Made by a program: the position numbers and the translations under genes. Source: Escherichia coli (GTDB taxonomy: Bacteria > Pseudomonadota > Gammaproteobacteria > Enterobacterales > Enterobacteriaceae). Taken from it: 64,000 nucleotides of DNA. The notes under the pieces are model-generated. The model worked only from the letters and a program-made list of their open reading frames with translations. It had not been told where the DNA came from and ran no database searches. Shown here in pieces: positions 1,863 to 11,339 of this stretch; positions within the stretch are counted from its first letter, which is position 1, and the number at the start of each line of letters is the position of its first letter. The DNA is taken from the NCBI RefSeq assembly GCF_051903065.1, contig NZ_CP178438.1; one strand, 5' to 3'.

Positions 1863-3317
1863 TTATTTTTCAATCGGATAGATAGTACCCGTATTCATAA
1901 TGCCGTTAGGATCGAATTGCTTTTTCAGCCCTTCCAGCAACGCCCACGCGCTGCCGTGTTCCAGCTTGCTCCAGTGAACGCGATGTTTACCAATGCCGTG
2001 GTGGTGCACCATCGAACCGCCGAGGCGAATGGTTTCTTCGCAGATGATTTTGTTGAGCGGATTGTGGTACTTGTCGATTTCCTCTTCCGGCTTACAGTCA
2101 ACAACGTTGTAGTCATAGACGAAGTACATGTTTGTGCCGTTCTGATAGCTATGAGAGGAGTGACCGCCCAGCATAGTGATGTCGTCGGCGTGCGGGAACT
2201 CGGTACGAATACGGTTAATAACGCTTTCGTAGATTTCGTGGATGCAGCTCCAGCAGCCGGACACTTCAGTGGTAAAGCCCATGTTGCCGGTTTTGAGGAT
2301 TTGCACACGTTCGGCAGCCACTTTATCCGGTCCCCAGTTCAGGTTGTTAAACCAGGTTTCGATCAGTTTGCTGTCCACGCGCTGGCACTGCGGGTAGCGG
2401 GCAACGATTTCCGCAATCCCTTCGCCCGTCGCCTTCGCAATGCGAGGGTTACCTTCAGCCATAAAGATCAGCACACATTTTCCGTCGGCAAAATGGGTGA
2501 AGTGTTGGGTGCCATCTTCAGCGTCATACAAACGAGCGATCGACGGACGATACCCTTCCACCATGATTTCACGCAGGATGTTGAAGCCGGTTTTCATGTC
2601 TTCCAGGATATAGCCGTAGAAGAGGTTGTTTTTCGGGGTGAATTTAAAGATTTTCACTGTTACTTCAGTGATATAGCACAATGCACCTTCGTTGCCGATG
2701 ATGATGTGACGAATGTCCGGGCCAGCCGCGCGGCGTGGCACGTTTTTAATACGTGTGACGGTGCCATCAGCCAATACGGCTTCCAGACCAACGACCATAT
2801 CTTCGATTGCGCCGTAGAGTGTGGAGAACTGCCCGATACTGCGGGTTGCTACCAGGCCGCCCATCTGCGCCAGCGGCTTTGACTGCGGAGAATGCCCAGT
2901 GGTGTAACCTTTTTCACGCAACGCGTTTTCCAGCACCTCCAGCGGAACGCCACATTGCGCCGTCGCCTGCATATTCTCAATATCAATATTAATGATTTGA
3001 TTCATGGCGGAACCGTCGAGCACCACCGAGTTTTCTACAACAGTTTCCAGCCCACCTTCGGTGGCGGAAGCACCGGTACGCGGCACACCGTTAATTTTGT
3101 GCGCATTCATAAAATTCAGCACACGGGAGACTTGTTCTGTGGAACCGAGTTTTACGACCGCAGCCGGAATCGGCAAAGTATAAATACCATGAATATCCGG
3201 AAATTTACGAAAACGGTCAATACTGTTCTTCTTTAATACTGTTTCATCGGTAATTACGCGATCTGCACCAACAATTTCCTTTAGCTGGTCGACAATCGCT
3301 GCGCGAGATAAAGACAT
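1863..3317 (-). CDS. ygcU: FAD-linked oxidoreductase (GlcD / alkyl-DHAP synthase-like)
   Basis: 484-aa ORF with an FAD-binding PCMH-type domain signature; same length and position as K-12 YgcU. Confidence 0.85.
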   Translation of the reverse strand: MSLSRAAIVDQLKEIVGADRVITDETVLKKNSIDRFRKFPDIHGIYTLPIPAAVVKLGSTEQVSRVLNFMNAHKINGVPRTGASATEGGLETVVENSVVLDGSAMNQIINIDIENMQATAQCGVPLEVLENALREKGYTTGHSPQSKPLAQMGGLVATRSIGQFSTLYGAIEDMVVGLEAVLADGTVTRIKNVPRRAAGPDIRHIIIGNEGALCYITEVTVKIFKFTPKNNLFYGYILEDMKTGFNILREIMVEGYRPSIARLYDAEDGTQHFTHFADGKCVLIFMAEGNPRIAKATGEGIAEIVARYPQCQRVDSKLIETWFNNLNWGPDKVAAERVQILKTGNMGFTTEVSGCWSCIHEIYESVINRIRTEFPHADDITMLGGHSSHSYQNGTNMYFVYDYNVVDCKPEEEIDKYHNPLNKIICEETIRLGGSMVHHHGIGKHRVHWSKLEHGSAWALLEGLKKQFDPNGIMNTGTIYPIEK

Positions 3318-3386
3318 AGTAATTCCTTCCTGATAATAAAAATGGAATAATCATTAATAAGAGAAAACAGAAACCACCGTTATGGG

Positions 3387-4172
3387 TTAGCGCACTAAAT
3401 AACCGCCATCAACCACTAATAAATGCCCGTTGACATAATTCGATGCCGGACTTGCGAGGAATACGGCTGCGCCCATTAAATCCTGAGTATCGCCCCAACG
3501 GTTTGCTGGAATATGATCAAGAACGCGCTGATTGGTTTCTGGATTACTGCGTGTCGCCAGCGTAATATCTGTTGCATAATAGCCAGGGGCGATACCATTT
3601 ACCTGAATATTATATTGACCTAGTTCATCACAATAAGCTTTGGTGAACCCGGCAAGAGCATGTTTAGTGGCAGAATATGCAGGTGACCATTGTCCACCTA
3701 AGTAAGAGAACAATGAACAGATATTAATGATTTTACCGCTTTTCTGCGGGATCATAATTTTTGCTGCTTCGTAGCTTAACTCAAATGCGGCGGTCAGGTT
3801 CACATCAATCATTGGATCCCAGTCGGCACGACCGAAGTCCAGCACCTTATTCAGCTTACAAATACCGGCATTGTTAACCAGAATATCGACGGTACCGAAA
3901 CGTTCGCAACAGGCGGCGATTATCTTCTGCGGCGCGCCTTCTGCGGTGATATCCACCTGCATGAAGTCCACCTCAACACCCTGTTTTTCAATCATTTCCT
4001 TTGTTTCGCCGTTATCTTTGACAAAACTTGGAATAAAGACATTTGCGCCTGCTTTGGCCAACGCCATGGCAAATGCCTGGCCTAAACCGCTATTCCCGCC
4101 GGTAACAATTGCGGTTTTACCTTTCAGGGAGAAAAAATCCATTGAGAACGCATTGAGAGATTCGATTGACAT
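3387..4172 (-). CDS. ygcW: Short-chain dehydrogenase/reductase (SDR) family oxidoreductase
   Basis: TGGNSGLG Rossmann motif and YxxxK catalytic motif (YSATK); start placed at MSIESLNAF (4172) instead of the longer ORF-track start. Confidence 0.85.
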   Translation of the reverse strand: MSIESLNAFSMDFFSLKGKTAIVTGGNSGLGQAFAMALAKAGANVFIPSFVKDNGETKEMIEKQGVEVDFMQVDITAEGAPQKIIAACCERFGTVDILVNNAGICKLNKVLDFGRADWDPMIDVNLTAAFELSYEAAKIMIPQKSGKIINICSLFSYLGGQWSPAYSATKHALAGFTKAYCDELGQYNIQVNGIAPGYYATDITLATRSNPETNQRVLDHIPANRWGDTQDLMGAAVFLASPASNYVNGHLLVVDGGYLVR

Positions 4173-4419
4173 AGTTAGCTCCAATTTCCGTAAGGCAAAA
4201 AAAAAGAAAGGTAACTTCCCCCGCAAGAGGGAAGTTACCTTTCTCATTATCTCTGGTAACTGGAGATAATTTTTAGCATAAGGGCATAACTGCTAATGTG
4301 ATCGTAATCACAGTGTAATATTCGTATTGTCAAATAATTTTAAAAAGCAGAAGCGTGATTACTCTCACACAACACCTCTGCTTTCCATGTTATTTATTAT
4401 TTCAATTACTAGAGACCTG

Positions 4420-4466
4420 AGAAAAGTAATCCACCTGAAAGGGCGGCTTACTTTTCTCTTTTTTTT
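4420..4466 (+). terminator. Terminator-like hairpin plus T-tract in the 5' leader of yqcE
   Basis: Inverted repeat gagaaaagtaa ... ttacttttctc followed by 9 T residues, ending about 25 bp before the yqcE ATG. Confidence 0.35.
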
Positions 4467-4490
4467 GTCTATTACAAATGGGAATACGAT

Positions 4491-5768
4491 ATGCAACACA
4501 ACTCATATCGCCGTTGGATAACCCTCGCGATAATTAGTTTTAGCGGCGGCGTTAGTTTCGACCTGGCTTATTTACGTTATATTTATCAAATTCCCATGGC
4601 GAAATTTATGGGATTCAGCAATACCGAGATAGGTTTAATAATGAGTACCTTTGGTATTGCAGCTATTATTCTTTATGCCCCCAGCGGCGTTATTGCTGAT
4701 AAATTCTCACATCGCAAAATGATTACTTCCGCGATGATCATTACCGGATTACTGGGTCTGTTAATGGCAACGTATCCACCGCTGTGGGTAATGCTCTGTA
4801 TTCAGGTCGCCTTTGCGATAACGACGATTTTAATGCTGTGGTCGGTGTCGATTAAAGCCGCATCGTTGCTTGGCGATCATAGCGAGCAAGGGAAAATTAT
4901 GGGCTGGATGGAAGGGCTGCGCGGCGTCGGTGTAATGTCGCTGGCGGTGTTTACCATGTGGGTCTTTTCTCGCTTTGCACCGGATGACAGCGCTAGCCTG
5001 AAAACGGTCATAATTATCTACAGTGTGGTTTACATCTTGTTGGGGATTCTGTGCTGGTTTTTTGTTAGCGATAACAACAACCTGTGCAGTGCCAATAACG
5101 AAGAAAAACAGTCATTCCAGCTTAGCGACATCCTGGCCGTTTTGCGCATCAGCACCACCTGGTATTGCAGCATGGTGATTTTTGGCGTCTTCACCATCTA
5201 CGCCATTCTGAGTTACTCCACCAACTATCTGACCGAAATGTATGGCATGTCGCTGGTGGCGGCGAGCTACATGGGGATTGTGATCAACAAAATCTTCCGC
5301 GCGCTGTGCGGCCCACTTGGCGGCATTATCACCACCTACAGTAAAGTGAAATCCCCTACCCGCGTGATCCAAATCCTTTCCGTACTCGGCCTGCTGGCGT
5401 TAACTGCCCTGCTCGTCACGAACTCTAACCCGCAATCGGTCGCGATGGGGATTGGCCTGATTTTACTGCTGGGATTCACCTGTTACGCCTCACGCGGGCT
5501 GTACTGGGCCTGCCCTGGCGAAGCGAGAACACCGTCTTACATTATGGGCACCACGGTAGGTATTTGTTCGGTGATTGGATTCCTGCCGGATGTCTTCGTT
5601 TACCCGATTATCGGCCACTGGCAGGACACCCTGCCCGCAGCAGAAGCCTACCGCAACATGTGGCTGATGGGCATGGCGGCGCTTGCCATGGTGATTGTCT
5701 TTACCTTTTTGCTGTTCCAAAAAATTCGTACTGCTGATATCGCCCCCACAACGGCTAACAGCAAGTAA
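4491..5768 (+). CDS. yqcE: MFS-family transporter
   Basis: 425-aa polytopic membrane protein; position and size match yqcE. Confidence 0.85.
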   Translation: MQHNSYRRWITLAIISFSGGVSFDLAYLRYIYQIPMAKFMGFSNTEIGLIMSTFGIAAIILYAPSGVIADKFSHRKMITSAMIITGLLGLLMATYPPLWVMLCIQVAFAITTILMLWSVSIKAASLLGDHSEQGKIMGWMEGLRGVGVMSLAVFTMWVFSRFAPDDSASLKTVIIIYSVVYILLGILCWFFVSDNNNLCSANNEEKQSFQLSDILAVLRISTTWYCSMVIFGVFTIYAILSYSTNYLTEMYGMSLVAASYMGIVINKIFRALCGPLGGIITTYSKVKSPTRVIQILSVLGLLALTALLVTNSNPQSVAMGIGLILLLGFTCYASRGLYWACPGEARTPSYIMGTTVGICSVIGFLPDVFVYPIIGHWQDTLPAAEAYRNMWLMGMAALAMVIVFTFLLFQKIRTADIAPTTANSK

Positions 5769-5794
5769 GCCAGAAAAATTACAGGAGAAAAATC

Positions 5795-7273
5795 ATGTCG
5801 AAGAAATACATCATAGGGATTGATGGCGGAAGTCAGAGCACAAAAGTGGTGATGTACGATCTGGAAGGTAACGTGGTTTGCGAAGGCAAAGGTTTATTGC
5901 AGCCGATGCACACGCCAGATGCCGATACCGCAGAACATCCTGACGACGATTTATGGGCATCATTATGTTTTGCCGGTCACGATTTGATGAGTCAGTTTGC
6001 CGGGAATAAAGAAGATATTGTCGGTATTGGTCTGGGATCCATCCGTTGCTGCCGTGCGTTATTGAAAGCCGATGGCACGCCAGCTGCGCCATTGATTAGC
6101 TGGCAGGATGCACGCGTAACGCGTCCCTACGAACACACTAATCCTGACGTGGCATATGTCACCTCTTTTTCGGGTTATCTAACGCATCGCTTAACCGGCG
6201 AGTTTAAAGACAATATCGCCAACTATTTTGGTCAGTGGCCAGTGGATTATAAGAGCTGGGCATGGAGCGAAGATGCTGCGGTAATGGAGAAGTTTAATAT
6301 CCCTCGTCATATGCTGTTTGATGTGCAAATGCCTGGCACCGTCCTCGGACATATCACACCACAAGCCGCACTGGCGACACATTTCCCGGCAGGGCTGCCG
6401 GTTGTTTGTACCACCAGTGATAAACCGGTAGAAGCTCTGGGAGCCGGATTACTGGATGATGAAACGGCGGTGATTTCTCTTGGCACCTACATCGCGCTGA
6501 TGATGAACGGTAAAGCACTGCCGAAAGATCCGGTGGCGTACTGGCCGATTATGTCTTCTATACCGGAAACATTGCTGTATGAAGGGTACGGTATCCGTAA
6601 AGGCATGTGGACGGTGAGCTGGCTACGCGACATGTTAGGCGAGTCGTTAATTCAGGATGCCAAAGCACAGGATCTTTCACCGGAAGATTTGCTCAACAAA
6701 AAAGCTTCTTGTGTGCCGCCTGGCTGTAATGGTCTGATGACGGTGCTGGACTGGCTGACCAACCCGTGGGAACCCTACAAACGTGGGATTATGATCGGCT
6801 TTGATTCCAGCATGGATTACACATGGATATATCGTTCGATACTGGAAAGCGTGGCGCTGACGCTGAAGAACAATTACGACAATATGTGTAATGAAATGAA
6901 TCACTTTGCAAAGCATGTGATCATTACTGGCGGCGGTTCGAACAGCGATCTATTTATGCAAATTTTTGCCGACGTGTTCAACCTTCCGGCACGCCGTAAC
7001 GCCATTAACGGTTGTGCAAGTCTGGGGGCAGCGATCAATACGGCGGTAGGTCTGGGGCTATACCCGGATTACGCAACGGCTGTCGACAAAATGGTTCGCG
7101 TGAAAGATATCTTTATGCCTGTTGAGAGCAATGCCAAACGCTACGACGCGATGAATAAAGGTATTTTCAAAGCCCTAACCAAACATACTGATGTGATCCT
7201 GAAAAAATCGTATGAAGTGATGCATGGGGAATTGGGGAATGCGGATTCGATCCAGAGCTGGTCGAATGCGTAA
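5795..7273 (+). CDS. ygcE: FGGY-family carbohydrate kinase
   Basis: 492 aa; N-terminal IGIDGGSQSTK actin-fold ATPase motif; RBS aggag upstream. Confidence 0.85.
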   Translation: MSKKYIIGIDGGSQSTKVVMYDLEGNVVCEGKGLLQPMHTPDADTAEHPDDDLWASLCFAGHDLMSQFAGNKEDIVGIGLGSIRCCRALLKADGTPAAPLISWQDARVTRPYEHTNPDVAYVTSFSGYLTHRLTGEFKDNIANYFGQWPVDYKSWAWSEDAAVMEKFNIPRHMLFDVQMPGTVLGHITPQAALATHFPAGLPVVCTTSDKPVEALGAGLLDDETAVISLGTYIALMMNGKALPKDPVAYWPIMSSIPETLLYEGYGIRKGMWTVSWLRDMLGESLIQDAKAQDLSPEDLLNKKASCVPPGCNGLMTVLDWLTNPWEPYKRGIMIGFDSSMDYTWIYRSILESVALTLKNNYDNMCNEMNHFAKHVIITGGGSNSDLFMQIFADVFNLPARRNAINGCASLGAAINTAVGLGLYPDYATAVDKMVRVKDIFMPVESNAKRYDAMNKGIFKALTKHTDVILKKSYEVMHGELGNADSIQSWSNA

Positions 7274-7319
7274 GTGAGGAAGACCGGGCGGGAAACTGCC
7301 CGGCCTGAACATACCTGAA

Positions 7320-7457
7320 TGGTTATCCCCGCTGGCGCGGGGAACATAAGTTCGACAACTTAAAAAATGATAACAAGTCCGGTTTATCCCCGCTGATGCA
7401 GGGAACATAATAAAAACTTTAACTAGTTCGGTTTATCCCTGTTTTTACAAGGAATAT
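7320..7457 (-). CRISPR. Degenerate CRISPR mini-array (3 type I-E-like repeats, 2 spacers)
   Basis: Repeats tggttatccccgctggcgcggggaacat (7320-7347), cggtttatccccgctgatgcagggaacat (7380-7408), cggtttatccctgtttttacaaggaatat (7429-7457); one 32-bp spacer and one 20-bp spacer; same orientation as the main array. Confidence 0.75.
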
Positions 7458-7519
7458 TAACTACACTCGATGTCTTTAGAATAAAAGACAATACGAATCG
7501 CACTTTATCAATTTTCACT

Positions 7520-8576
7520 GGCTTTGTTGAATAAATCGAACTTTTGCTGAGTTGAAGGATCAGATCACGTATCTTCCCGACAACGCAGACCGTTCCGTGG
7601 CAAAGCAAAAGTTCAAAATCACCAACTGGCCCACCTACAATAAAGCCCTCATCAACCGTGGCTCCATAACTTTCTGGCTGGATGATGAAGCTATTCAGGC
7701 CTGGTATGAGTCAGCAACACCTTCTTCACGAGGCAGACCTCAGCGCTATTCTGACCTTGCCATCACGACTGTGCTGGTCATTAAACGCGTATTCAGGCTG
7801 ACCCTGCGCGCTGCGCAGGGCTTTATTGATTCCATTTTTTCTCTGATGAACGTTCCGCTACGCTGCCCGGATTACAGCTGTGTCAGCAGGCGGGCAAAGT
7901 CGGTTAATGTCAGTTTCAAAACGCCCACCCGGGGTGAAATCGCACACCTGGTAATTGATTCCACCGGGCTGAAGGTCTTCGGTGAAGGCGAGTGGAAAGT
8001 CAAAAAGCATGGCCAGGAACGCCGCCGTATCTGGCGTAAGCTGCATCTCGCCGTTGACAGTAAAACACATGAAATCATCTGCGCTGACCTGTCGCTGAAC
8101 AACGTTACGGACTCAGAGGCCTTCCCCGGGTTAATCCGGCAAACCCACCGGAAAATCAGGTCAGCCGCCGCCGATGGCGCTTACGATACCCGGCTATGTC
8201 ACGATGAACTGCGGCGTAAGAAAATCAGCGCGCTTATCCCTCCCCGAAAAGGTGCGGGTTACTGGCCCGGTGAATATGCAGACCGTAACCGTGCAGTGGC
8301 TAATCAGCGAATGACCGGGAGTAATGCGCGGTGGAAATGGACAACAGATTACAACCGTCGCTCGATAGCGGAAACGGCGATGTACCGGGTAAAACAGCTG
8401 TTCGGGGGTTCACTGACACTGCGTGACTACGATGGTCAGGTTGCAGAGGCTATGGCCCTGGTACGAGCGCTGAACAAAATGACGAAAGCAGGTATGCCTG
8501 AAAGCGTGCGTATTGCCTGAAAACACAACCCGCTACGGGGGAGACTTACCCGAAATCTGATTTATTCAACAAAGCC
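7520..8576 (+). mobile_element. IS903-family (IS5 superfamily) insertion sequence, 1057 bp
   Basis: Perfect 18-bp terminal inverted repeats (ggctttgttgaataaatc at 7520; reverse complement ending at 8576); flanked by a 9-bp direct repeat attttcact at 7511-7519 and 8577-8585 (target-site duplication). Confidence 0.92.
7597..8520 (+). CDS. IS903-type DDE transposase
   Basis: Protein ...AKQKFKITNWPTYNKALINRGSITFWLDDEAIQAWYESATPSSRGRPQRYSDLAITTVLVIKR... matches the IS903/IS102 transposase as I recall it; probable GTG start at 7597 (the ORF-track start at 7552 is a TTG extension). Confidence 0.88.
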   Translation: MAKQKFKITNWPTYNKALINRGSITFWLDDEAIQAWYESATPSSRGRPQRYSDLAITTVLVIKRVFRLTLRAAQGFIDSIFSLMNVPLRCPDYSCVSRRAKSVNVSFKTPTRGEIAHLVIDSTGLKVFGEGEWKVKKHGQERRRIWRKLHLAVDSKTHEIICADLSLNNVTDSEAFPGLIRQTHRKIRSAAADGAYDTRLCHDELRRKKISALIPPRKGAGYWPGEYADRNRAVANQRMTGSNARWKWTTDYNRRSIAETAMYRVKQLFGGSLTLRDYDGQVAEAMALVRALNKMTKAGMPESVRIA

Positions 8577-8976
8577 ATTTTCACTTAAAGTATGAACAGG
8601 ATATCTTTATTCATAAGAACTATTCATCAACAGCGTATAGAGGCGGTTATGTAAAACCACTCATTAGCCTCAAAACAAAGACAAATTTCCAGATTTATTA
8701 CTTAATCAATGAATAACAAGCTTAAAAAATACACTGTTATTCTAAAGAAAAAATTAACAGGCATTAATTAATATTAAAAAAATAATATATTAAAATTTCT
8801 TAACGGTTTAAGGATTATACAAATAACACTTTGATTAAATTTGATTTTTTGTATCGATAATTGTGAACTTATCTGGCATGGGGAACTATTTTGAACATGA
8901 GGTGTTACGTGGATATGTTGCTTATTACAAGTACAGCTAATATAAAAACTTGAGAAAGAGATAACGGGTTATATGG

Positions 8977-9554
8977 TGGTTTATCCCCGCTGGCGCGGGG
9001 AACTCGTACTGACGGATAAAAATAATACCTTTTGCGGCGGTTTATCCCCGCTGGCGCGGGGAACTCGTCAACGTTTTTCATGTGGGCATGAGTTGGGGCG
9101 GTTTATCCCCGCTGGCGCGGGGAACTCTATTCGGCCTCGTGCTGGTCGTGACAAAATACCGGTTTATCCCCGCTAGCGCGGGGAACTCTGGCGATATTGC
9201 CTACCGCAACAAAGAAAATACGGTTTATCCCCGCTAGCGCGGGGAACTCATCCACGAATCCAGTGCAAATGAGTTTGTTGGCGGTTTATCCCCGCTAGCG
9301 CGGGGAACTCATTGTGACTACCACCGATAACCCCGCAACCACCGGTTTATCCCCGCTAGCGCGGGGAACTCCTGCATTCGCCTGCGGTTATCAGATCGCT
9401 AAACGGTTTATCCCCGCTAGCGCGGGGAACTCGCTGCCATTACTTCCCGCCAGCGTTGCTCTGGCGGTTTATCCCCGCTAGCGCGGGGAACTCGCAGAGA
9501 ATCGTTCGATTGCCCCTACATCTTCCGGTTTATCCCCGCTGGCGCGGGGAACTC
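8977..9554 (-). CRISPR. CRISPR array, type I-E (E. coli-type) repeats, 10 repeats / 9 spacers
   Basis: 29-bp repeat cggtttatccccgctggcgcggggaactc (reverse complement of GAGTTCCCCGCGCCAGCGGGGATAAACCG) with an exact 61-bp period; nine 32-bp spacers at 9006, 9067, 9128, 9189, 9250, 9311, 9372, 9433, 9494; the first repeat has t instead of c at its first base. Confidence 0.97.
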
Positions 9555-9760
9555 TCTAAACATAACCTATTATTAATTAATGATTTTTTAAGCCAGTCAC
9601 AATCTACCAACTTTACAGTATCACACAAACAACACATCCATTATGTTAAAGAGCGCTTAATCCATTGATTAAAAAGGTAAATATTTAAAATAACTCTATA
9701 CAAACTAAAATCTACCAAACTTTACCGCAATAATTTTCACTCCAACGAAAAATTAACGCC
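9555..9760 (-). promoter_or_regulatory. CRISPR leader (AT-rich, contains the array promoter and integration signals)
   Basis: The sequence abutting repeat 10 (reverse complement ...ATAATAGGTTATGTTTAGA) matches the conserved E. coli leader-repeat junction as I recall it; AT-rich tract; the far boundary is approximate. Confidence 0.7.
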
Positions 9761-9892
9761 ACAGAATTTGTAGAGAATGATAATGATTAGTCCAGGATGG
9801 GCAAAATGGAGGTTTTTCAGAGGCGACAAAGAATATAAATGAGTAGAAGTCTTTACAGGTTCCACCCATTTATAACGCTTATAAAAGTTTAA

Positions 9893-10564
9893 TCAGGCAA
9901 TATTTAGATATTTATGTGTTTGCATCGACAAACGCCAATTACGCGCAATGCAGATTTCAATGCACAATCGTGTGGCATCATCCTTTTGGCTAATCGGCTG
10001 CAGTGCAATGACTCGCGGTTTATCATCGGTCAGCGTTGCCAATAGTTCATCCAGTGCTTCAATATCGCGTACGCGCCCCACTGGATGCTTGATTTCGTTG
10101 GCTCGCTCCAGTGCCTGTGACAACACTTCATAGCCGCCGCGCATGTTCAGCTTTGGCGATACGGTAACCCAGGTATTCGGTGTGCAGCGTACCTCATGAG
10201 TACCACTGGTTTCGATCTGGCAGCTAAAACCGTTCTTTTCGAGCAGATCAGTCAGTGGTAGCAAATCATGAATGCAAGGCTCACCACCCGTAATCACCAC
10301 ATGCCGCGCGGTGTATCCCTGGCGACTAATGACAGCCAACAAGTCTTCACTGCTCGCCGCCCCCCACTTATCACTCTCTTTGGTCTTCGCCAGAATGCTG
10401 AAAAGGGAGACTTCCCGATCCTCAAGCTTTTCCCAGGTGTGTTTGGTGTCGCACCAGGCACAGCCAACCGGGCATCCCTGTAAACGAATAAAAATGGCGG
10501 GGACGCCGGTAAAGTAACCCTCACCTTGCAGGGTCTGGAACATCTCGTTAATCGGGTACTGCAT
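9893..10564 (-). CDS. queE: 7-carboxy-7-deazaguanine synthase (radical SAM)
   Basis: 223 aa, MQYPINEMFQTLQGEGYFTGVPAIFIRLQGCPVGCAWCDTKHTW with the CxxxCxxC radical-SAM cluster motif. Confidence 0.9.
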   Translation of the reverse strand: MQYPINEMFQTLQGEGYFTGVPAIFIRLQGCPVGCAWCDTKHTWEKLEDREVSLFSILAKTKESDKWGAASSEDLLAVISRQGYTARHVVITGGEPCIHDLLPLTDLLEKNGFSCQIETSGTHEVRCTPNTWVTVSPKLNMRGGYEVLSQALERANEIKHPVGRVRDIEALDELLATLTDDKPRVIALQPISQKDDATRLCIEICIARNWRLSMQTHKYLNIA

Positions 10565-10736: not shown

Positions 10737-11339
10737 ATGCTCAGAATATGCATCGTAATTATATTTATTTTCAATTTATCAGGCTGTGGATATAACGATA
10801 TTCAAACCTATGATGAGCAGGTTAACGCCTCCTGGTCTGAGGTATTAAATCAATATCAACGTCGCGCCGATCTTATTCCTAATCTTGTCGCCAGTATTAA
10901 AGGTTATTCCAACCATGAAAAAGACGTTTTGGAAGCCGTAACATTGGCTCGTAGCCAGGCTAATCGCGCCAGCAGCGATCTTCAGCAAGCTCCCGGAGAT
11001 GCACAAAAATTACAAGCCTGGCAACAGGCCCAGGCGCAGGTGACTCGCACTCTCGGTCAGTTAACGATAATTAGTGAGCGTTACCCTGAGTTAAAGGCTC
11101 AAGAGCTCTATCAAAACTTAATGGTACAGCTCGAAGGAAGTGAAAATAGAATTGCCGTTGCGCGAGGAAGATATATTAAAGCCATTGAACAATATAATGT
11201 CACTATCCGCAAATTCCCCGCTGTATTAACCGCAAAGGTCATGGATTACACACCAAAGAAAAATTATTTGCCGGATGATGTCACCGCAGTAAGTAAAGCC
11301 CCAACAATAGATTTTAGCCAGAATGCTAATGCTCATTAA
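10737..11339 (+). CDS. LemA-family lipoprotein
   Basis: 200 aa; N-terminal lipobox (LSGC); LemA-type core (...QRRADLIPNLVASIKGYSNHEKDVLEAVTLAR...); RBS aaaaggga upstream; AT-rich codon usage. Confidence 0.85.
   Translation: MLRICIVIIFIFNLSGCGYNDIQTYDEQVNASWSEVLNQYQRRADLIPNLVASIKGYSNHEKDVLEAVTLARSQANRASSDLQQAPGDAQKLQAWQQAQAQVTRTLGQLTIISERYPELKAQELYQNLMVQLEGSENRIAVARGRYIKAIEQYNVTIRKFPAVLTAKVMDYTPKKNYLPDDVTAVSKAPTIDFSQNANAH

Follow-up and report, generated by a model that had tools for sequence, protein, structure and literature searches.

The feature at positions 7320-7457 of the window, by which we mean the whole 64,000-nt stretch of Escherichia coli DNA that was analysed (NCBI RefSeq assembly GCF_051903065.1, contig NZ_CP178438.1), is the already published CRISPR2.2, a leaderless three-repeat mini-array beside ygcE that is real but ordinary. 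CRISPR2.2 is said to have been described originally by Diez-Villasenor et al. in 2010. Descriptions of it are given in three papers (PMC4489801; PMC3903273; PMC10910852), and CRISPR-II, the locus between ygcE and ygcF, has been reported to hold either one array (CRISPR2.2-3) or CRISPR2.2 and CRISPR2.3 lying 0.5 kb apart, with leaders beside CRISPR2.1 and CRISPR2.3 only (PMC3903273; PMC3737337). The original prediction had placed three repeats, with a 32-bp and a 20-bp spacer, beside ygcE, and both coordinates and sequence were as it described them. In the reading we favor, CRISPR2.2 is likely a leaderless sub-array, the old end of CRISPR-II, which became separated from the leader by an AT-rich insertion.

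The identity, synteny and distribution of the element could be observed directly. According to the ORFs and to the RefSeq annotation of homologous loci, it lies between ygcE and queE (ygcF), on the ygcE side. It has three repeats and two invariable spacers, as seen in its anatomy, in population counts and in the literature (PMC4489801). It is followed, before CRISPR2.3, by about 0.5 kb of AT-rich DNA, which is 453 bp long with 27.6% G+C once an IS903B element and one copy of its target duplication are removed, and which is colinear with other strains. The mini-array showed 100% identity over 245 bp with strain PNUSAE019785 and two differing positions relative to the K-12-like strain TUM22760 (L002); the mini-array of K-12-like strains is the same but for a single loop base of U1, the other difference lying upstream. 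Alignment with the equivalent mini-array in other E. coli, proposed as a check in the original prediction, recovered the same element and the same split architecture in ~76% of complete genomes, with 4124 of 5426 carrying at least 80% of the ygcE-to-CRISPR2.3 segment and a second search giving 4108/5426. At homologous loci, the automatic RefSeq annotation marks CRISPR2.3 alone as a CRISPR and leaves the mini-array unannotated, which may be the reason that it looked noteworthy.

CRISPR-II was oriented by the established position of the K-12 leader. On the plus strand the repeats read CGGTTTATCC...GGGGAAC and the leader is on the queE side, so transcription of the arrays runs along the minus strand, with U1 as the repeat farthest from the leader (PMC3903273). 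The features of the locus are collected in Table 1.

Table 1. Features of the CRISPR-II locus in the window, with positions, strand and the basis of each assignment.
Feature	Position	Strand	Basis or comment
ygcE (FGGY-family carbohydrate kinase), left boundary gene of CRISPR-II	5795-7273	+	492-aa ORF; matching region is ygcE in RefSeq genomes
G+C-rich hairpin just 3´ of the ygcE stop, terminator-like stem without T-run	7282-7305		9-bp stem, fold of 7274-7520
U1, putative trailer-end (oldest) type I-E repeat, 28 nt, TGGTTATCCCCGCTGGCGCGGGGAACAT	7320-7347	-	sequence reading and repeat search
S1, 32-bp spacer	7348-7379	-	matches the string of the original prediction
U2, 29-nt repeat, CGGTTTATCCCCGCTGATGCAGGGAACAT	7380-7408	-	24/29 to consensus; two loop changes and one stem change
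S2, 20-bp "spacer"	7409-7428	-	matches the string of the original prediction
U3, divergent 29-nt repeat, CGGTTTATCCCTGTTTTTACAAGGAATAT	7429-7457	-	22/29 to U2, 18/29 to consensus
AT-rich splitting segment, left part	7458-7519		continues directly into 8586-8976 in every other E. coli examined
IS903B 9-bp target duplication, perfect, ATTTTCACT	7511-7519 and 8577-8585		
IS903B, intact, 1057 bp	7520-8576	+	99% identity to annotated IS903B copies
IS903B transposase ORF	7552-8520	+	
AT-rich splitting segment, right part, with one repeat-like fragment (8873-8887)	8586-8976		sequence and alignments
CRISPR2.3, 10 canonical repeats and 9 spacers	8977-9554	-	10 I-E consensus matches against 0 expected; equivalent is a CRISPR in RefSeq
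Leader 2.3 and remaining intergenic DNA up to queE	9555-9892	-	AT-rich; in unsplit strains the leader directly follows U1
queE (ygcF)	9893-10564	-	ORF

The ygcE stop codon occupies 7271-7273, and the mini-array lies immediately 3´ of this stop and of the G+C-rich hairpin, which was not called by the consensus terminator scan. The single-T deletion that had been noted in the first repeat is present: U1 matches the I-E consensus except for T in place of C at base 1 and for one T missing from the GGTTTATCC run. For the second repeat, the changes had all been assigned to the loop; two are indeed there, and a further one falls in the stem, where it becomes a U.G wobble on minus-strand RNA. The third repeat is as heavily diverged as had been claimed, with the initial 11 nt intact and equal to the consensus and the rest shifted towards A+T. 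A repeat search detected the U1/U2 pair at 89% identity with 61-nt spacing, as well as a U2/U3 family (D1, 46 nt) at 74% identity with 49-nt spacing. S1 also contains a perfect 6-bp inverted repeat, TAAGTT-cgac-AACTTA at 7347-7362, which formed a small hairpin when the minus-strand transcript was folded.

Membership of type I-E is evident from at least two direct repeats of ~29 nt that match the consensus CGGTTTATCCCCGCTGGCGCGGGGAAC(A/T)C and from the Cas6e-type stem-loop that folding predicts for U1, U2 and U3 on the transcribed strand. Compared with the unique 32-33 bp spacers expected of such arrays, S1 has 32 bp and is unique, while S2 has 20 bp and resembles the end of S1. An AT-rich leader with promoter and integration signals was not found beside the first repeat. 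Given that the DNA to the right of U3 has no significant similarity to leader 2.3, and that the literature reports leaders only at CRISPR2.1 and CRISPR2.3, we consider the mini-array a leaderless sub-array. No cas genes adjoin the array in the window; the cas-E genes sit in the separate CRISPR-I locus, ~24 kb from CRISPR-II (PMC4489801). Rfam gave zero family matches in 7000-10000, and scans for promoter and terminator consensus sequences showed no enrichment over shuffles and nothing within the mini-array.

Despite its divergence, U3 truly derives from a repeat, and random AT-rich sequence does not explain it. Its identity to U2 is 22/29, with the first 11 nt exact, and the best other 29-mer among 126,404 positions of the window (both strands, arrays masked) reached at most 19/29 to U2. 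None of 200,000 shuffles with U3's own AT-rich composition attained the observed identity, and the divergent last 18 nt matched U2 at 11/18 (shuffle P = 0.0002). It is this excess over both the window and the shuffle background that identifies U3 as repeat-derived, so the comparison on which the original prediction had staked its third unit came out in favor of a repeat. The opposite reading, that U3 and the 20-bp "spacer" are a chance likeness in AT-rich DNA and that the real array consists of two repeats only, can point to the 18/29 identity of U3 to the general consensus and to three unrelated window positions with at least 19/29 to that consensus. We give it almost no credence, as it is refuted by the window-wide 29-mer and shuffle comparison; moreover, U3 forms a canonical in-register hairpin, and three repeats are counted in the literature (PMC4489801).

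The 20-bp S2 had been taken for a shortened spacer. The sequence comparisons suggest instead that S2 is probably a truncated, diverged copy of S1, not an independently acquired spacer. When both spacers were aligned in the register set by the repeats beside them, the final 17 nt of S2 matched the repeat-proximal end of S1 at 12/17 (shuffle P ~0.002), and this anchored match was equalled by 1 of 1,464 AT-rich background 20-mers; unanchored local alignment of S1 and S2 gave P = 0.06-0.09. The 49-nt units 7360-7408 and 7409-7457 are identical at 34/49 positions. T18 and A21 are common to U2 and U3 and absent from the 159 canonical repeats in the loci examined, though both are GC-to-AT transitions and could be convergent. 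We grade the evidence for a duplication as moderate to modest. S2-U3 would have arisen through the copying of 49 bp, made up of U2 and the adjoining end of S1, followed by divergence or, equally possibly, through a 61-bp copy that later lost 12 bp. As S2 is probably a truncated copy of S1, the array may record one acquisition event, not two.

Relatives of the locus bear on how the mini-array came to stand alone. The T-deleted U1 lies directly before leader 2.3 in E. coli AHB2 (L088) and E. whittamii (L007), ends an ordinary array in E. albertii (L037) and Escherichia sp. MOD1-EC7003 (L005), and is the ygcE-proximal terminal repeat also in E. coli with a single fused array. Because the same T-deleted unit ends arrays or meets leader 2.3 in these unsplit relatives, U1 is, judging from the sequences compared, the ancestral trailer-end repeat of CRISPR-II, and its T deletion would predate E. 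coli. The mini-array beside ygcE may thus represent the oldest end of the CRISPR-II array. From the comparison with unsplit relatives we infer that ~0.45 kb of AT-rich DNA was inserted in an ancestor shared by the E69 lineage and most E. coli, which would have cut the mini-array off from the leader and from spacer acquisition.

Outside mainstream E. coli, the split was seen only in the divergent lineage E69 (L006) among 80 species-representative loci, and no E69-like genome occurred in the complete-genome set. E69 differs from E. coli at ~19% of ygcE third codon positions. Its mini-array consists of a U1 without the T deletion, S1 with 2 substitutions and then U3 with 0/29 differences; exactly 49 bp, corresponding to U2 and S2, are missing. 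A deletion of 49 bp between the CGGTTTATCCC sequences with which both U2 and U3 begin is the simplest explanation. We rejected E69 as a pre-duplication state, since its remaining unit is the already divergent U3, while U2 is nearer the consensus. In the O145 strain L087, S1 and one repeat are missing, a loss explained by recombination between U1 and U2.

Larger rearrangements were also observed at this locus. Replacement of the whole region by a sucrose locus has been reported for some strains (PMC11251922). In agreement with this, E. coli AR_0086 (L004) had a sucrose-utilisation (scr) cluster, with genes for a kinase, a porin and a PTS IIBC component, downstream of ygcE, at 3125-6129 of that locus, and neither the mini-array nor the AT-rich segment was found in the ~3 kb examined downstream of ygcE. 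A deletion in strain 2014C-4135 (L085) truncates ygcE and brings queD-cysJ alongside, and IS1A insertions in AR_0061 (L098) remove the mini-array and keep the right half of the AT-rich segment.

The nature of the AT-rich segment matters for a second account of the split, in which CRISPR2.2 was once independent, its own leader decayed into the 0.45-kb segment with U3 left as the inactivated leader-proximal repeat, and CRISPR2.3 arrived later with its leader. U3 has its full 29 nt and stops precisely where the AT-rich DNA begins, as at a leader-repeat junction, and the segment is AT-rich like the leader (27.6% versus 30.5% G+C). The spacer between ygcE and ygcF is also a published promoter island (PMC2731890). 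However, alignments of the segment to leader 2.3 were not significant (local P = 0.16, junction-anchored P = 0.23), on which ground we rejected it as an old leader. In addition, U1 is terminal in the leader-2.3 array of unsplit relatives, most simply reflecting one array that was later split, and the literature gives CRISPR2.2 no leader (PMC3903273; PMC3737337). We regard an independent origin of CRISPR2.2 as very improbable and retain the cut-off end of CRISPR-II as the likely history.

Two further origins of the segment were rejected. The phage and plasmid collections contained no homologue, the only hits being E. coli chromosomes misfiled as plasmids, which argues against a phage or plasmid source. 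A fully decayed array fails as a general explanation, given that only one fragment scored above shuffles and that it is not conserved. This fragment, CTGGCATGGGGAACT at 8873-8887, shares 13/15 positions with the 3´ half of the I-E repeat (score 22, against a maximum of 19 in 500 shuffles) and is absent from K-12, O157-like and E69 sequences; that it is a trace of older decayed repeats is possible but weak. The motif CGGTTTA occurs at 8804-8810, where the implied repeat start is exactly 61 nt upstream of the notional start at ~8865 given by the fragment.

In this genome the segment is interrupted by IS903B, which adds 1.07 kb and widens the gap between CRISPR2.2 and CRISPR2.3 from ~0.45 kb to 1.5 kb. 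No IS was present at this site in any of the 5,426 complete E. coli genomes, so the insertion is recent and strain-specific. On the far side, the repeat variants of CRISPR2.3 are arranged in blocks, with GCTGGCG in repeats 1-3 and 10 and GCTAGCG in repeats 4-9, and its trailer-end repeat has T, not C, as first base. Downstream of queE, genes for LemA-family and TPM-domain proteins were present in L001, L085, L087 and L088, and yqcG and ygcG occupy this place in K-12-like strains, which points to alternative gene cassettes at the queE end of the locus. From its position and length, a 200-aa ORF at 10737-11339 of the window is a candidate member of the LemA/TPM cassette.

Folding of minus-strand RNA revealed that hairpin formation is retained by all three repeats. 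U1, U2 and U3 each gave ....(((((((....))))))), a 7-bp stem with a 4-nt loop in the canonical register, at -15.1, -12.1 and -7.9 kcal/mol, respectively, with z = -2.9 for U3; in the plus-strand folds of U2 and U3 a mismatch was present. The five stem changes of U3 amount to one C-to-U change (U.G) and two double replacements of C-G by U-A. The probability that U3 would keep all 7 pairs on the minus strand is ~0.16 under a model of GC-to-AT transitions only and 0.005 under unbiased substitution. At P ~0.16 under the transition model, we rejected hairpin compensation as proof of selection and consider it only suggestive.

Cas6e cuts at the 3´ base of the repeat stem and leaves an 8-nt 5´ handle. 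Following these rules, a U2-S1-U1 transcript would be processed to a canonical 61-nt crRNA composed of the AUAAACCG handle, which U2 would supply, a 32-nt guide and an intact hairpin (AUAAACCG + GACUUGUUAUCAUUUUUUAAGUUGUCGAACUU + AUGUUCCCCGCGCCAGCGGGG). The T deletion in U1 is located in the portion that would be 3´ of the Cas6e cut, outside any crRNA, and so the missing base would fall in the discarded tail of the processed transcript. U3-S2-U2 is predicted to give a 49-nt species with a 20-nt guide. The mini-array may lack expression of its own, as the only sources of transcription would be read-through that starts at the leader promoter of CRISPR2.3 and promoters present by chance within the AT-rich segment, and IS903B probably blocks read-through from CRISPR2.3 in this genome. 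Without a leader, Cas1-Cas2 would be unable to add spacers to the mini-array. The lack of acquisition that follows from the missing leader accounts for the fixed spacer content.

This fixed content proved to be highly invariant. S1 is carried by 4062 of the 5426 complete E. coli genomes, a set that is clonally redundant, and is identical at 32/32 positions in 4048 of the 4062 carriers (99.7%). Variants of the 32-nt S1 thus occur in 0.34% of carrier genomes, compared with 5.1% for the 49 nt of S2+U3 (94.9% identical), 8.3% for a control 32-mer located 13 nt right of U3 and 21.6% for a control 32-mer in the middle of the AT-rich segment. In 14 diverse E. coli, 5/138 sites segregated in the mini-array versus 72/499 in flanking non-coding DNA (Fisher P = 3e-4), although the flank polymorphisms are grouped in blocks brought in by recombination, which break off at the repeats or close to them, so the sites are non-independent and the test overstates their independence. 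One such block ends at ~7321 in L003 and L097, and another starts at ~7444-7475 in L096. Among the same strains, no site segregated in S1 (0/32) or S2 (0/20), and 130/492 ygcE third codon positions did. Across the entire intergenic region, the 138-nt window that varied least was the one falling on the mini-array. Similarly, U1+S1+U3 differed between E. coli and E69 at 4/89 positions, compared with 108/487 in the flanks (P = 3e-5), a result that recombination over a short tract could account for.

The mini-array is thus static rather than decaying, and its degeneracy is old. Of the original description as a decaying array remnant, the remnant stands and the decay does not. The progressive degeneration that had been read from the three repeats was not borne out either: the T deletion of U1 is old, being present in E. 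albertii, E. whittamii and MOD1-EC7003, while U3 is unchanged relative to E69 and has kept its hairpin. The suggestion that the 32-bp spacer could be ancient fared better, as S1 is present both across E. coli and, with only 2/32 positions differing, in E69, a lineage ~19% diverged at synonymous sites.

That the expected drift is absent, and that the mini-array is less variable than its flanks, speaks against a pure neutral relic. We therefore weighed the possibility that CRISPR2.2 is a maintained functional mini-array, in which U2-S1-U1 is transcribed and processed by Cas6e to a 61-nt crRNA with a guide under purifying selection. The guide could act against a recurrent mobile element or in Cascade-dependent housekeeping or regulation, with transcription arising by read-through or from the "promoter island". 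In favor of such maintenance are the identity of S1 in nearly all carriers, where flank controls of equal length vary in 8.3% and 21.6%, the 0/52 segregating spacer sites in 14 strains against a flank rate of 14% (P = 3e-4), and the divergence from E69, which affects 4/89 positions as compared with ~19% of ygcE third codon positions. Every sequence signal that Cas6e would need to process S1 is intact, the U1 deletion lying outside the crRNA, and the stem changes of U2 and U3 are wobble or compensatory on minus-strand RNA only.

Several observations, however, stand against maintenance. The spacer search proposed in the original prediction yielded no S1 protospacer in 50,697 phage or 72,556 plasmid records (the best phage match had E of at least 0.3, and plasmid matches were misfiled chromosomes), nor did S1 occur at another chromosomal position in E. 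coli genomes. The element is missing from about a quarter of E. coli, S1 is gone in L087 and U2-S2 in L006, and BL21-derivative strains have been reported with CRISPR2.2 but without cas genes (PMC3737337). The recombination-block structure of the flank polymorphisms, with breakpoints near the repeats, overstates the independence of the tests, and hairpin retention has P ~0.16 under the transitions-only model. In this genome an IS903B between both arrays is tolerated, and the literature searched contained no evidence of CRISPR2.2 expression. On balance, we consider a maintained, functional mini-array unlikely, and its stronger form, a domesticated and selectively maintained crRNA gene whose S1 guide serves in a conserved Cascade-dependent function, less likely again. 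If the invariance of S1 did reflect selection and not recombination structure, it would bear on the natural role of the silent, slowly evolving E. coli I-E system. For the leaderless, cut-off end of CRISPR-II that we favor, our modest additions are that the degeneracy is static, that S2 is probably a copy of S1 and that S1 is less variable than equally AT-rich flanks.

Compared with the published CRISPR2.2, the mini-array described here agrees in position, in its three type-2 (I-E) repeats, in both invariable spacers and in the lack of a leader; it differs in that this genome carries IS903B with a fresh 9-bp target duplication, 62 bp right of U3. U1 also resembles the degenerate trailer-end repeats of ordinary arrays, being slightly defective and leader-distal; the loss of 1 nt from the 3´ part of the repeat as transcribed is harmless for the last crRNA. 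In contrast to such repeats, the most divergent unit here, U3, is at the leader-facing end and not at the trailer end, and this unit diverged long ago and is no longer changing. Orphan arrays, such as the E. coli CRISPR4.1-2 remnant (clpA-infA), share with CRISPR2.2 a short length, fixed spacers, the lack of adjacent cas genes and wide conservation across strains. Unlike these, CRISPR2.2 normally lies no more than 0.5 kb from an active, leader-bearing array of the same repeat type and, with such an array nearby, any CRISPR2.2 transcripts could use the I-E machinery ~24 kb away in cas-positive strains (PMC4489801).
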